This document shows positions 5,412-8,885 of a stretch of 8,885 bases of DNA, piece by piece; position 1 is the first letter of the stretch, and the number at the start of each line of letters is the position of its first letter. The position numbers and the translations under genes were made by a program. The DNA is taken from the IMG/VR virus record IMGVR_UViG_2609460067_000009; one strand, given 5' to 3'. The DNA comes from a virus (lineage: Duplodnaviria; Heunggongvirae; Uroviricota; Caudoviricetes). The notes beneath the pieces were generated by a model. The model was not told where the DNA came from, made no database searches, and was given only the letters and a program-made list of their open reading frames with translations.

Positions 5412-5720
5412 TTACAAACGACTACCTGAAATAACTCGTTGGTTGATTTCGTTAATACGATCCTGTGCACGCGCCATCTCGTGACTGTGAGCCATGGCGA
5501 TCTGTAGTAACTGGATTCCCGGTGCGAAACGTCCGTTCTCTAATTTCATGGCCAGTCCCTCTTCAATAAGGGTATTAAGTGCTCGATTGATATTCGCCGG
5601 GGACTCCCCCAGGGCTGATGCCAGTTCACCGTTAGAAACACCGTTCAGAGCATGACCGCGTAGAGCTTTGAGTACACGTAGGATGCGGGTCCCAGAACTG
5701 GAAATATTTACTTTACTCAT
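5412..5720 (-). CDS. winged-helix/HTH DNA-binding protein
   Basis: About 102 aa from the ATG at 5720. HTH-like segment (VSNGELASALGESPANINRALNTLIEEGL). The longer ORF-track start at 5783 would overlap the upstream gene and is rejected. Confidence 0.6.
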   Translation of the reverse strand: MSKVNISSSGTRILRVLKALRGHALNGVSNGELASALGESPANINRALNTLIEEGLAMKLENGRFAPGIQLLQIAMAHSHEMARAQDRINEINQRVISGSRL

Positions 5721-5772
5721 GTCACATTTCCATTTTTGCAATATGTGATAACCTGTTGCATATGTGGAAAAT
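5721..5772. promoter_or_regulatory. intergenic region with direct repeats TTGCA(A)TATGTG (putative regulator-binding sites)
   Basis: TTGCAATATGTG at 5736-5747 and TTGCATATGTG at 5757-5767. The 10-mer ATATGTGATA at 5741-5750 recurs exactly at 5998-6007 in the divergent control region. Confidence 0.35.
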
Positions 5773-5961
5773 TTATGCCGCATTTGACGTGGGTTTTAAT
5801 CCCAGTTTTACGGCAATTTCATGGGCTTTGCCGTAACGAGCTTTGGTCTGTCCATTGAGAACACGATAGACCTCATTGCGGCTGTAGCCGTGTTCTTCGG
5901 CCCAGCGGGTAAACGTGATACCACGCTGACGGAAGAGATTTTTAACTTGTTCGGAAGTCAT
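5773..5961 (-). CDS. small HTH DNA-binding protein at the Ner/Cro-equivalent position (Ner-like)
   Basis: 62-aa ORF, first gene of the minus-strand early operon, divergent from the repressor-like gene. Excellent AAGGAGA ribosome-binding site 5 nt upstream. Pattern RG-x-T-F-x-x-W-A-x-E-x-G...IA-x-x-LG resembles the Ner/Nlp family as I recall it. Confidence 0.55.
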   Translation of the reverse strand: MTSEQVKNLFRQRGITFTRWAEEHGYSRNEVYRVLNGQTKARYGKAHEIAVKLGLKPTSNAA

Positions 5962-6047
5962 TGTTGTCTCCTTTGTTGATGCAATGATGTTTGTTTTATA
6001 TGTGATAGATTATGAGAACTATTGTTCTCATTGTCAATGAGGTTTAT
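5962..6047. promoter_or_regulatory. divergent early/repressor control region (overlapping promoters and operator)
   Basis: AT-rich spacer between divergently oriented genes. Contains candidate -35/-10 elements (TTGATG ... TATATG), the ATATGTGATA motif and a perfect 8-4-8 inverted repeat. Confidence 0.45.
6012..6031. repeat. perfect inverted repeat ATGAGAAC-TATT-GTTCTCAT (candidate operator)
   Basis: 8-bp arms are exact reverse complements with a 4-bp spacer. It sits between the divergent promoters and the likely repressor start. Confidence 0.6.
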
Positions 6048-6473
6048 GTGAATTTTGATTCTCTTTGCGCGTCGCGGTTCAAAGCTGAGCGTTCGCGGTT
6101 ATCACTCAAGCAGGCTGAAGTAGCAGCCCTTTGTGGCGTTTCAAGAGAAATGTGGGGGAAATATGAACGAGGGGTTGCTGTTCCCGGAGGTGAGTTACTT
6201 GCAGCCTTTGCAAGAATTGGGGCCAATGTACAGTTCATTCTTACCGGGGAGTCATCAGGTATAACTTTATCACGTGATGAAATGGAGTTACTGCAGCACT
6301 ACCGGCAGGCACCATTACAGGTCAAAGGTTCAGTTTTGTCGGCCTTGACTACTGGCTCCTCCAGAGAACGGGCGGAACAGGTTATTCATGGAGATGTTCT
6401 GGGGAATGTTATCAAAGGTAACGTAACCATAGGAACAGGTGGAATAATGAACAAAAATACCAAGAGAAGATGA
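6048..6473 (+). CDS. XRE-family HTH transcriptional repressor (c-like lysogeny repressor candidate)
   Basis: HTH_XRE-like segment (LSLKQAEVAALCGVSREMWGKYERG). Divergent from the early operon. Start placed at GTG 6048, which has a GAGG ribosome-binding site 5 nt upstream. The in-frame ATG at 6012 lacks a ribosome-binding site and lies inside the palindrome. No S24 peptidase domain is evident. Confidence 0.65.
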   Translation: MNFDSLCASRFKAERSRLSLKQAEVAALCGVSREMWGKYERGVAVPGGELLAAFARIGANVQFILTGESSGITLSRDEMELLQHYRQAPLQVKGSVLSALTTGSSRERAEQVIHGDVLGNVIKGNVTIGTGGIMNKNTKRR

Positions 6474-7456
6474 GTAAAGAGAAGCAAACAGTTAACGGGG
6501 ATGTGGGTAACGTTGTCAGCGGTGATGTTACCATTCATAACTATTCTGCTGACATACTTCCTTCGGCCCAGCAACCAATTTCGTTGCTGCAAAAACGCGA
6601 TTTACACAGATTGATGGATGAATTGGTTGATCTGGGGGAAAGTAAGCGCGAGCTATGGATGACGATCCACACGAAACTTAATACCAAAACAGTTAATGAA
6701 ATGACTGCGGCTGATTATCATGGTGCGGTTGAGATCCTTCAGAGATATGCACAACAGATCCAGAATATGAAGGACTGTAATCTTCTGGTCAGCAAAATAA
6801 TGGCGCTTACTGACCCTGGGTATCGTCTTGACCGTGACAGATACTGTCTGAAGCATTTCGGTACAACCCATCTTAAAGGCCTAGACAAAGAGCAGTTGCA
6901 GGCTGTGTTTGGTTATTTTGATGATCTGCTGAATATTCGTGATGAGAGTAAAACTCTATCACCTCCATCGGAAAGCGGTGCAAAATCAGTCGCAACTGTA
7001 CCAACCAGAAGCCGGAAGCCTCATGTAGTAGTGTTGGGGGGAGTGTTAGTTCTTGTAGCAATATTTTTCGTGGGAATGATTGTGTTCGCTGGTAAATGGG
7101 GAAATGCCAAAGCAGTAGCTTCTACTGAAACCAGCGTTTTTAACATTAAAACCAACGATAAAATAATAGAAGATTCCATCCCCGCACTGCGCAGCATGTT
7201 TCCAGGGTTAAATAAGTACTCAGATGATTTCCATTCGGTTTCAAGCTACAAGCAAAAAACGGGCTGGCATACCCTTAAATTTACTGTATCAGCAAAGGCA
7301 TCCGTCCCCGAAAATTATAGTGTTAAGGGCAAGGTTTGTTACATTAACATAAGCCCTGATGGTAGTTATGCTCGGGTTTTGACTGCTCCATGTCGTTCAC
7401 TGCTACTTGATCAGCAAAGCACTCCTGACAGTAAATACCGTTTTATTCTTAAATAG
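6470..7456 (+). CDS. single-pass membrane protein, unknown function (cargo gene 1 of repressor operon)
   Basis: 328-aa ORF whose ATG overlaps the repressor stop (ATGA at 6470-6473). One strongly hydrophobic segment (VVVLGGVLVLVAIFFVGMIVFAG) is preceded by basic residues (TRSRKPH). About 185 aa lie before it and about 120 aa after it, with two Cys in the latter. AT-rich codon usage unlike the transposition genes. Confidence 0.65.
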   Translation: MSKEKQTVNGDVGNVVSGDVTIHNYSADILPSAQQPISLLQKRDLHRLMDELVDLGESKRELWMTIHTKLNTKTVNEMTAADYHGAVEILQRYAQQIQNMKDCNLLVSKIMALTDPGYRLDRDRYCLKHFGTTHLKGLDKEQLQAVFGYFDDLLNIRDESKTLSPPSESGAKSVATVPTRSRKPHVVVLGGVLVLVAIFFVGMIVFAGKWGNAKAVASTETSVFNIKTNDKIIEDSIPALRSMFPGLNKYSDDFHSVSSYKQKTGWHTLKFTVSAKASVPENYSVKGKVCYINISPDGSYARVLTAPCRSLLLDQQSTPDSKYRFILK

Positions 7457-7546
7457 AAAATAACAGCTGAATTACCATGGGATCAGAAAAAAGACAAAGG
7501 CGGCATCATGCTGCGTTCTGAAATTTTAATGTAAAAGGTGATGAAC

Positions 7547-8128
7547 ATGGCAGGGATTCAGGTTATCGCAGGAAGTTTTCCTAAAGGGTGGGCAAGCATG
7601 GGGTTCGGTACCATCGTGTTTGCCAAAAAACCAAAACAAGGCTTTCCTGAAAATATTGTATTAAATCTGAAAGAAGAGCTTTTATCGATTGAACTTGCGG
7701 ATAGTGAAGAGGAAAGCCGTATAGGTAAGGCGGCAGGCGCAGGTTTGCTTGGTGGATTAATCTTTGGTGGTGCAGGGTTGGTCATTGGAGGTTTGCTTGG
7801 TGCGGCGGACAAGACGAAAAAAACTATCACTTTTAAGGCAATGTTTACGGGAAATAGGTTACTTCTGGCTAAAACAGATTCAAAAACTTTTGTAAAACTT
7901 CAGTCAATTGCTGCTGATAATGCCCATAACGCATCTGTAATCAACATGAAGCAAACTAACAGGGGCGATGTTTCTTCTCGTAAACAACTAACAGAAAATC
8001 CACAGCAGCAAGACTTACCTGCGCCCGCTACAACAGTAAAAATGACTGCCAAAGATAAGTTAGAATCGGCTCTTGGGCTGGGAATCATCGTTATAGCTGT
8101 TTGGGCAATAATACACTTCTTTTTTTAG
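7547..8128 (+). CDS. glycine-zipper membrane protein, unknown function (cargo gene 2)
   Basis: About 193 aa from the ATG at 7547 (AGGTG ribosome-binding site 6 nt upstream; the ORF-track start at 7538 is a GTG). Glycine-zipper hydrophobic segment GAGLLGGLIFGGAGLVIGGLLG with GxxxG repeats, plus a C-terminal hydrophobic helix (LGLGIIVIAVWAIIHFFF). Confidence 0.6.
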   Translation: MAGIQVIAGSFPKGWASMGFGTIVFAKKPKQGFPENIVLNLKEELLSIELADSEEESRIGKAAGAGLLGGLIFGGAGLVIGGLLGAADKTKKTITFKAMFTGNRLLLAKTDSKTFVKLQSIAADNAHNASVINMKQTNRGDVSSRKQLTENPQQQDLPAPATTVKMTAKDKLESALGLGIIVIAVWAIIHFFF

Positions 8129-8130
8129 TG

Positions 8131-8154
8131 CAGCCCTTCAGGGCTGTTTCTGTT
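8131..8154 (+). terminator. rho-independent terminator (hairpin plus T-tract)
   Basis: CAGCCC-TTCA-GGGCTG stem-loop immediately followed by TTTCTGTT, 3 nt after the stop of the glycine-zipper gene. Confidence 0.5.
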
Positions 8155-8165
8155 CAGGAGGTATC

Positions 8166-8642
8166 TTAAGGATTATCCGGGGCGTTTTCCTGTTTGCCGT
8201 ACTTCGGAGACGAACAACATTCTGTTGGCTGACCGGTGAGTTTACGTAACTCCTTCATGAGCAGCTCCTGATCGTAAACTGTCATCAGTGCCGCAATGGT
8301 GGCATGCAGTGCATCGGGCAGTATCCAGGGTTGCCGGCCCGTGGGGCATATAACATCCAGCAGCTCATTCGTCCGACAGATACGCTCCTCGCCGTATGAC
8401 AACAGGCCCTGTCCCGTGTATTCCTCCAGCCTGATCACTGTGCCACCCCGTGGCTTCTGCCAGGTCGTCAGATCTTCGCCATTCATACGGCGCTCATTCT
8501 CCACGTCAGCAGCATCGACAATGACGCTGTTTCCGAGTTCCTGTTTCACCATCTCTTCTATCCGCGCCAGTACGTAACTTTTACCGCTGCCCACAGGACC
8601 GGACACAGTGACAGTGATGACCGGATTCAGTGTGTGCGTCAT
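8166..8642 (-). CDS. small P-loop NTPase (Walker A), unknown function
   Basis: 158-aa ORF with a GAGGAG ribosome-binding site 8 nt upstream. Walker A GPVGSGKS near the N-terminus and a possible Walker B VIVDAAD. Convergent with the cargo operon; GC-richer than the cargo genes. Confidence 0.6.
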   Translation of the reverse strand: MTHTLNPVITVTVSGPVGSGKSYVLARIEEMVKQELGNSVIVDAADVENERRMNGEDLTTWQKPRGGTVIRLEEYTGQGLLSYGEERICRTNELLDVICPTGRQPWILPDALHATIAALMTVYDQELLMKELRKLTGQPTECCSSPKYGKQENAPDNP

Positions 8643-8772
8643 ATCGTATTCTCCTCTGTGAATAATTCATCGTTTATCCTGCACATCCCGTATCCCCGGC
8701 TCTCTTAACGCGCTTTAAAATCCTTCGCGCCCTGTATTTGTGATGCTGTCTCCACCAGATAAGGAGACACAC

Positions 8773-8885
8773 ATGAAAAACCTGAAAAAATTCATTCCCC
8801 CTGTTAAAAAACCTCGCCTCAGCGGCTGGCTGCTGACCTCAGTGCTGTTGCTGGGCACCATCGCTCTGGTCTCACCACAGCAGCT
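8773..8885 (+). CDS. partial CDS (5' end only): protein with N-terminal signal-anchor or signal peptide
   Basis: AAGGAGA ribosome-binding site 6 nt upstream of the ATG. Basic N-terminus (MKNLKKFIPPVKKPR) followed by a hydrophobic stretch (LSGWLLTSVLLLGTIALV). Runs off the window edge. Confidence 0.4.
   Translation, partial: MKNLKKFIPPVKKPRLSGWLLTSVLLLGTIALVSPQQ

Follow-up and report, generated by a model that had tools for sequence, protein, structure and literature searches.

The window analyzed here, a stretch of 8,885 nucleotides, belongs to a transposable prophage of the Mu type that is arranged like BcepMu. Genes for Gam, a MuB-like AAA ATPase, an rve transposase, a DUF3102 protein and two HTH proteins lie on the minus strand, and the plus strand carries the gene under study, referred to below as the target, together with two upstream neighbors (Table 1). 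Downstream of the target, a convergent open reading frame for a 158-residue P-loop protein (8166-8642, minus strand) is followed by a holin/SLT lysis cassette, with the holin start at about 8773, and by Mu-like structural genes.

The target is an intact open reading frame of 193 codons plus a stop, and it lies exactly where the first-pass annotation had placed it. The RefSeq entry with identical coordinates, in E. coli AR_0015, is annotated as a hypothetical protein. The GTG at 7538, which the ORF finder took as the start, was rejected because the homologs begin with MAGIQV. The target is co-oriented with the repressor gene, with no terminator in between and one directly after the target, a gene order that fits expression from the prophage. 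The terminator-like hairpin that follows its stop codon is the sole such site within positions 5700-8885.

Table 1. Features of the target gene, its product and the surrounding module (positions in the window).
Feature	Position	Strand	Remarks
Low-GC (41-47%) mosaic immunity module	6012-8178		PhiKM and ~530 other E. coli prophages similar again from about 8178
HTH (HTH_31/HTH_3) repressor-like gene	6012-6473	+	heads the same-strand unit containing the target
328-residue membrane protein (phrog_10002)	6470-7456	+	between repressor and target; start overlaps repressor stop by ATGA
Shine-Dalgarno-like AAGGTGA	7535-7541	+	read from sequence; ATG 5 nt downstream
PH_gly_zipper protein ORF (WP_000907412.1)	7547-8128	+	phrog_12025, E 2.3e-128; PF27000 on 97%-identical proteins
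N-terminal half of predicted PH-like beta-sandwich, residues 1-53	7547-7705	+	strands 2-9, 14-19, 22-25, 37-40, 45-53
Predicted glycine-zipper helical hairpin, residues 55-87	7709-7807	+	helices 55-73 and 75-87, turn G74-G75; pLDDT 62-75
C-terminal half of predicted PH-like domain, residues 93-139	7823-7963	+	strands 93-100, 104-111, capping helix 112-139; VTF, DGR and D111 motifs conserved
Flexible linker, residues 140-167	7964-8047	+	pLDDT 51-61; poorly conserved, variable even in close relatives
C-terminal helix, residues 168-193, ending in predicted transmembrane tail anchor (about 170-193)	8048-8125	+	conserved W186, HFFF end
Intrinsic-terminator-like hairpin GCAGCCC-TTCA-GGGCTGT with T-rich tail	8130-8157 (stem-loop 8130-8147)	+	between convergent genes

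Gene content and variability of the immunity module

Most of the module has a GC content of 41-43%, compared with 55-61% in the transposase-region and core genes. Of 5426 complete E. coli genomes, 101 contain the target, each on the chromosome and in a single copy, with at least 99% identity in 99 of them. Related prophages are present in 636 E. coli genomes, whereas the module made up of the repressor, the 328-residue protein and the target occurs in only about 100. In the remaining related prophages, and in the related phage PhiKM, which is classified as Bcepmuvirus and from which the target is missing, similarity to the window starts at about 8178, just past the terminator of the target. 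In a prophage of E. coli strain 504211 that matches in other respects, the repressor and the gene for the 328-residue protein are kept, and the slot of the target is filled by an unrelated 203-residue reading frame and a DUF2441 gene. Because the slot is variable, the GC content is low and about 100 of the 636 genomes carry the gene, we conclude that the target is exchangeable cargo (a moron) of the immunity module and not a core phage gene.

Homology between the target and the 203-residue reading frame of strain 504211 was considered and rejected (BLASTP E value of 2.1). This reading frame has no Pfam match, and its occurrence together with the DUF2441 gene (L097, 3578-5174) points to a hot spot for cargo genes after the repressor and its 328-residue neighbor.

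The tail of the repressor (residues 120-140, 6369-6434) and the N-terminus of the 328-residue protein (residues 3-22, 6476-6535) share the pattern GDV-GNV-xG-VTI, with 11 of 21 positions identical and an E value of 3e-4. The ATGA overlap of the two reading frames at 6470-6473 suggests translational coupling, and the common pattern is perhaps a shared interaction motif. The 328-residue protein has one predicted transmembrane segment near residues 194-217, and its residues 19-147 weakly resemble the flagellar regulator Flk (NF007987, E 2.9e-12), at a level far below the family cutoff. Its gene stays with the repressor where the target has been replaced, as in strain 504211, and is missing from the Citrobacter prophages that carry an ortholog of the target. 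A RexAB-like two-gene system composed of the target and this neighbor was rejected, since the neighbor is not conserved with the target and PADLOC gave no match. Instead of a polytopic RexB-like channel with a conserved RexA-like partner, the target is predicted to have one tail transmembrane segment and the hairpin only.

The 158-residue P-loop protein aligns with positions 1-157 alone of phrog_3787, which has 242 positions; the PhiKM version is about 242 residues long. Since this match is incomplete and the joint of similarity lies at about 8178, the P-loop gene appears to have been cut short where the immunity module was joined by recombination. At the other end of the module, a near-consensus sigma-70-like site (TTGACA-17-CATAAT, 11 of 12 positions; 6009-6037, minus strand) faces the ner-like gene and coincides in part with the 5' end assigned to the repressor gene. 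As read from its letters, this site is probably the early promoter/operator region, and the annotation may misplace the start of the repressor or its promoter. In E. coli AR_0015 (L001, 1592-2538) the end of the prophage by a Mor-like gene abuts grxA, and the early region of this prophage has the opposite orientation to that of phage Mu, which is also the case in BcepMu-type phages.

Predicted fold, family membership and the conserved zipper

We modeled the target as a monomer with AF2, using an MSA of 90 family sequences. The mean pLDDT was 82 and reached 94-97 across the sandwich; the prediction from the single sequence was uninformative (pLDDT 39). According to this model, the protein consists of one PH-like domain with an inserted zipper hairpin, a linker and a tail anchor, a description that we hold to be very probably correct. 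The predicted N-terminus is a confident beta-strand and not a signal peptide. The first-pass annotation had described about 60 soluble residues before the zipper and a polar linker after it. This is literally true of the sequence, but it misdescribes the domain structure, in that both segments are modeled as halves of a single PH-like domain. The same annotation's second hydrophobic helix was borne out, at about residues 170-193 at the extreme C-terminus.

The consecutive GxxxG repeats that had first drawn attention to the gene were likewise found. The segment GAGLLGGLIFGGAGLVIGGLLG corresponds to residues 64-85 (window 7736-7801), and overlapping GxxxG motifs start at G60, G66, G70, G77 and G81. 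The (G/A/S)xxxGxxxG motif is present as G77-x3-G81-x3-G85, in addition to G60/G64 and G66/G70/G74. In the model, residues 55-87 are inserted between strands 45-53 and 93-100. Because these flanking strands pair in one sheet, both ends of the zipper would be found on one side of the membrane, and the zipper would therefore not be the single-pass transmembrane helix that had been implied earlier. The model instead shows two short helices whose ends are tied to adjacent strands, although the hairpin, with its pLDDT of only 62-75, is the least confident of the ordered parts. Each arm contains only about 12-13 hydrophobic residues, and the two short arms with a turn at G74-G75 lean against a bilayer-spanning zipper helix in the predicted structure.

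Foldseek against the PDB gave no significant E value for the target model, and all top matches were PH domains; the BFVD viral fold search gave one weak match, to an uncharacterized Pantoea phage protein, and a profile search of PDB sequences gave only a spurious match to Fis1.

The target matched phrog_12025 end to end, and the PHROGs function entry for this group, for the related phrog_20920 and for every other PHROG match of the target is "unknown". Membership in the Pfam family PF27000 (PH_gly_zipper) was established indirectly, through the precomputed annotation of relatives. This annotation is carried by P0002 and P0003 (97% identical to the target), P0008 (71%), P0009 (66%), P0033 and P0114, and it reaches homologs down to about 35% identity. 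A profile built from the clade of the target recovered the whole PF27000 family. Two features of PF27000 proteins are present in the target, namely a PH-like beta-sandwich capped by a C-terminal helix (in the model) and a glycine-rich hydrophobic zipper inside the PH fold (in the model and the alignment). On these matches, the target is a member of PF27000 and PHROG 12025, families that are catalogued without an assigned function. The new elements here are a tail-anchored subclade in enterobacterial BcepMu-like prophages and a hypothesis of defence.

Direct scans with the target itself gave little. Pfam yielded no family at E<=0.01 and, at E<=10, just C19orf12 as a weak match (E 0.024), with no match to bPH_1 to bPH_6 at E<=10; NCBIfam gave no usable match, and PADLOC gave none at E<=1. 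A tblastn search of 50,697 phage records found no match for the target or for the core-only homolog P0028, a search in which the low-complexity filter may mask the zipper. An exhaustive profile search recovered 221 representative clusters at E<=1e-3, with residues 1-125 of the target as the common core. A word-indexed search did not reach beyond close relatives (E. coli, Morganella and Citrobacter), and with the family profile it returned 19 matches only, being swamped by glycine-rich words. A literature search found no paper on the PH_gly_zipper family.

Conservation was counted in an alignment of 90 diverse homologs. G69 and G74 are invariant, and G64, G66, G77, G81 and G85 are 86-99% conserved. 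Charged residues account for at most 4% in columns 59-86, which leaves a charge-free stretch of about 28 residues, and basic residues, K57/R58 before and K90-K92 after, bracket the hairpin at its base. Because these glycines are invariant or nearly so and the columns 59-86 are nearly free of charge, the zipper pattern, as judged from the alignment, is not due to chance. No column of the family is better conserved than the zipper glycines, which surpass every residue of the PH core. We therefore argue that the zipper is the functional center of the protein and not a generic anchor. Position 75 is Pro in 82% of the homologs and Gly in the clade of the target, and the target differs further from the usual PF27000 protein by three extra residues (87-89) at the exit of the hairpin.

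The anatomy of the family was counted in 121 representatives with the N-terminal core. Soluble extensions are present in 49, a C-terminal tail transmembrane segment like that of the target in 20, and other transmembrane segments in 12, and the remaining 40 are core-only proteins of at most 135 residues. Many PH_gly_zipper members are only about 118 residues long and have no other domain. The 40 representatives without another membrane segment could be peripheral proteins or even soluble oligomers. Relative to the rest of PF27000, with which it shares the PH-like core and the conserved glycine pattern, the clade of the target is extended by a linker of about 30 residues and by the C-terminal tail anchor. 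A SHOCT domain is found in 10 of the 90 aligned members, and a domain scan of the longest fusion proteins provided no functional clue, with only DUF6030 and tRNA_anti-like domains detected.

These features bear on the possibility that the target is a triggered pore-forming or abortive-infection effector. Copies would be assembled through the zipper, for example in a ring of the bacterial PH type, and a phage signal would open the hairpins into spanning helices and depolarize the cell. GxxxGxxxG-type motifs reportedly occur in homo-oligomeric channels, a finding attributed to Kim et al. (PNAS, 2005), and the G77/G81/G85 motif is extremely conserved. The uncharged stretch of the hairpin would be long enough for the bilayer if straightened, but it is broken at the middle by Pro or Gly, and the folded PH domain puts both ends of the short-armed hairpin on one side. 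The SHOCT fusions suggest oligomerization. Counting against a pore, the target has no conserved sensor partner, its 328-residue neighbor being absent in Citrobacter, and constitutive lysogenic expression would need a tight trigger, for which no evidence was seen. The position in the immunity region parallels lambda rexB, and S. aureus Pdp sets a precedent for a single-gene, membrane-anchored abortive-infection protein of a prophage (PMC10127798), but the target has no similarity to the pore or abortive-infection families of PADLOC or Pfam. Taken together, we regard a triggered pore as unlikely.

Distribution and genomic contexts of relatives

Members of the family were found in Alpha-, Beta-, Gamma- and Deltaproteobacteria, Campylobacterota, Acidobacteria, Bacteroidetes, Planctomycetes, Chloroflexi, Gemmatimonadetes and others, with a sparse distribution within each bacterial group. 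In Citrobacter, an ortholog with 71% identity is present in 364 contig-index blocks. At four loci among the matches listed, it directly follows a different, CI-type repressor in BcepMu-like prophages; at the same four, the gene for the 328-residue protein is absent and a Dam-type methylase replaces the P-loop reading frame. In another BcepMu-like phage, a core-only homolog with 37% identity has an HTH repressor on one side and the lysis genes on the other, and one family member follows the primase of an integrase-primase, satellite-like element.

At least 157 relatives were found in IMG/VR with a 13-sequence alignment as the query. We analyzed the immediate neighbors at 67 non-redundant IMG/VR loci. 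The commonest neighboring Pfam families, based on crude ORF calls, were tape measure (11), Peptidase_S24 (8), HTH_3 (8) and tail assembly chaperone (7). By the same crude calls, a long tape-measure-like reading frame adjoins the family member at about 15 loci, on the opposite strand in 5 of them, and at about 10 loci the family member directly precedes the tape-measure gene on the same strand. At the P0162 locus it is antisense to the tail operon. Both recurrent positions, beside the repressor and at the chaperone/tape-measure junction, are classic sites of prophage-expressed exclusion genes.

Core-only members were also observed at the chaperone/tape-measure junction of many uncultivated siphoviruses, on either strand (L005, 8001-8357; L019, L021, L034, L047, L064 and L070, around 6001-6360).

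The proximity to lysis and tail genes could instead reflect a role in the lytic cycle of the phage itself, in which the protein would act as an antiholin-like regulator of lysis timing or as an accessory of tail assembly or DNA injection. The target lies about 600 bp from the holin/SLT cassette, but its own terminator and a convergent gene lie in between. In another BcepMu-like phage a homolog is co-oriented with the downstream lysis genes, and the roughly 10 IMG/VR loci with a co-oriented tape-measure gene downstream point in the same direction, although at several loci the gene is antisense to the tail operon. Moreover, the target is absent from PhiKM and from most related E. coli prophages that share the lysis and structural genes, and it is therefore dispensable for lytic growth. 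We consider a lytic role very unlikely, and the holin/antiholin reading in particular was rejected on three grounds: the terminator, the convergent gene and the absence of the target from most prophages with the same lysis cassette.

The breadth of the distribution raises another alternative, namely that the target is a factor of lysogenic conversion or membrane physiology outside phage defence, serving in membrane stress, in protection against bacteriocins or as a scaffold, with a design like that of YdbS/YdbT of B. subtilis. The ydbST genes reportedly contribute to resistance against antimicrobial compounds of other Bacilli, a finding attributed to Butcher and Helmann (2006). The predicted PH-like fold with a membrane hairpin would suit such a factor, but the target has no Pfam bPH match. 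The broad phylogenetic spread, which includes chromosomal contigs of many phyla, and the many members of about 118 residues with no other domain are consistent with it as well; on the other hand, the distribution is patchy in the way typical of mobile cargo, and the link to phage immunity and tail-moron slots is strong and repeated. A general physiological role thus appears improbable to us.

Proposed exclusion role and comparison with known systems

In the reading that we prefer, the target would be expressed in the lysogen, sit at the cytoplasmic side of the inner membrane and serve in phage exclusion or defence. We give this reading a probability of about 0.4; it is tentative. The exclusion function is inferred from the genomic context, and expression in lysogeny, the topology and oligomerization are predictions as well. 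The target would be transcribed with the repressor or just downstream of it, as the gene order suggests, and would therefore be made in the lysogen. An inner-membrane location is suggested by the predicted C-terminal transmembrane segment and the charge-free hairpin. The tail anchor would hold the PH domain at the cytoplasmic face of the inner membrane, with essentially nothing reaching the periplasm. The hairpin, with Lys and Arg at its base, may dip into the inner leaflet, zip copies together, or both, and the protein would hinder the DNA-delivery conduit of an incoming phage, as HK97 gp15, P22 SieA and T4 Imm do. Counting against exclusion, only 0-3 residues are predicted to be periplasmic, and in characterized exclusion proteins more of the chain is usually exposed to the membrane or the periplasm. 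No homology to a characterized exclusion protein was found in Pfam (E<=0.01), PADLOC (E<=1) or PHROGs.

A bolder version of the exclusion reading extends it to the whole family. PH_gly_zipper proteins might be a widespread and unrecognized single-gene anti-phage family of prophages and satellites, in which a ring of PH domains at the cytoplasmic side of the membrane presents a bundle of zipper hairpins that plugs or destabilizes the channel formed by the tape-measure or ejection proteins of an invading phage, or that turns into a pore on a trigger. We regard this extension as doubtful. If true, it would represent a new structural solution for membrane-level immunity. Small membrane proteins encoded next to prophage repressors or in tail operons are a main source of superinfection exclusion, and few of their families have been characterized. 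The present family is compact (with a core of about 118 residues) and broad, it occupies two classic exclusion slots, and its seven near-invariant hairpin glycines are easily mutable. About 100 complete E. coli genomes, many of them clinical, carry the exact gene, which makes tests in the native context simple. A positive result would give a function to PF27000 and PHROG 12025 and a tractable model of a mostly cytoplasmic protein that guards the inner membrane.

Among known systems, HK97 gp15 offers a parallel in genomic position. It is the original moron, located in the chaperone/tape-measure slot, and is an inner-membrane superinfection exclusion protein (PMC3594210). Like members of the present family, it is a small accessory membrane protein of a prophage, it occupies the identical slot, and it is independent of the surrounding operon. 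However, gp15 is YebO-like with one N-terminal transmembrane helix, whereas the target is predicted to have a PH-like domain, a hairpin and a C-terminal anchor, and there is no relationship in sequence or fold; an exclusion activity of the target is putative. A precedent for the position beside the repressor comes from the Mu-like Pseudomonas phage Fc02, which carries exclusion genes there (PMC9936078).

As is predicted for the target, P22 SieA and T4 Imm are small inner-membrane proteins of phages or prophages without a signal peptide; their expression shields the cell from the DNA of incoming phages. SieA has three predicted transmembrane helices and Imm is small and polytopic; neither has a PH-like domain or homology to the target. 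Lambda RexB shares the position beside the repressor but has four transmembrane helices and needs RexA. Among the bacterial PH domains (the class of Xu et al. 2010, for example PDB 3b77, and the membrane-flanked bPH_2 proteins YdbS/YdbT), the bPH_2 proteins have their transmembrane helices ahead of the domain, whereas the predicted hairpin of the target is inserted inside the fold. Glycine-zipper channel proteins (VacA and packing of the MscL/KcsA type) also contain GxxxGxxxG in a hydrophobic helix; the zipper of the target differs in being a short two-armed hairpin with both ends predicted on one side of the membrane. Overall, as far as sequence comparison tells, what the target shares with gp15, SieA, Imm and RexB is not homology but position and general logic.
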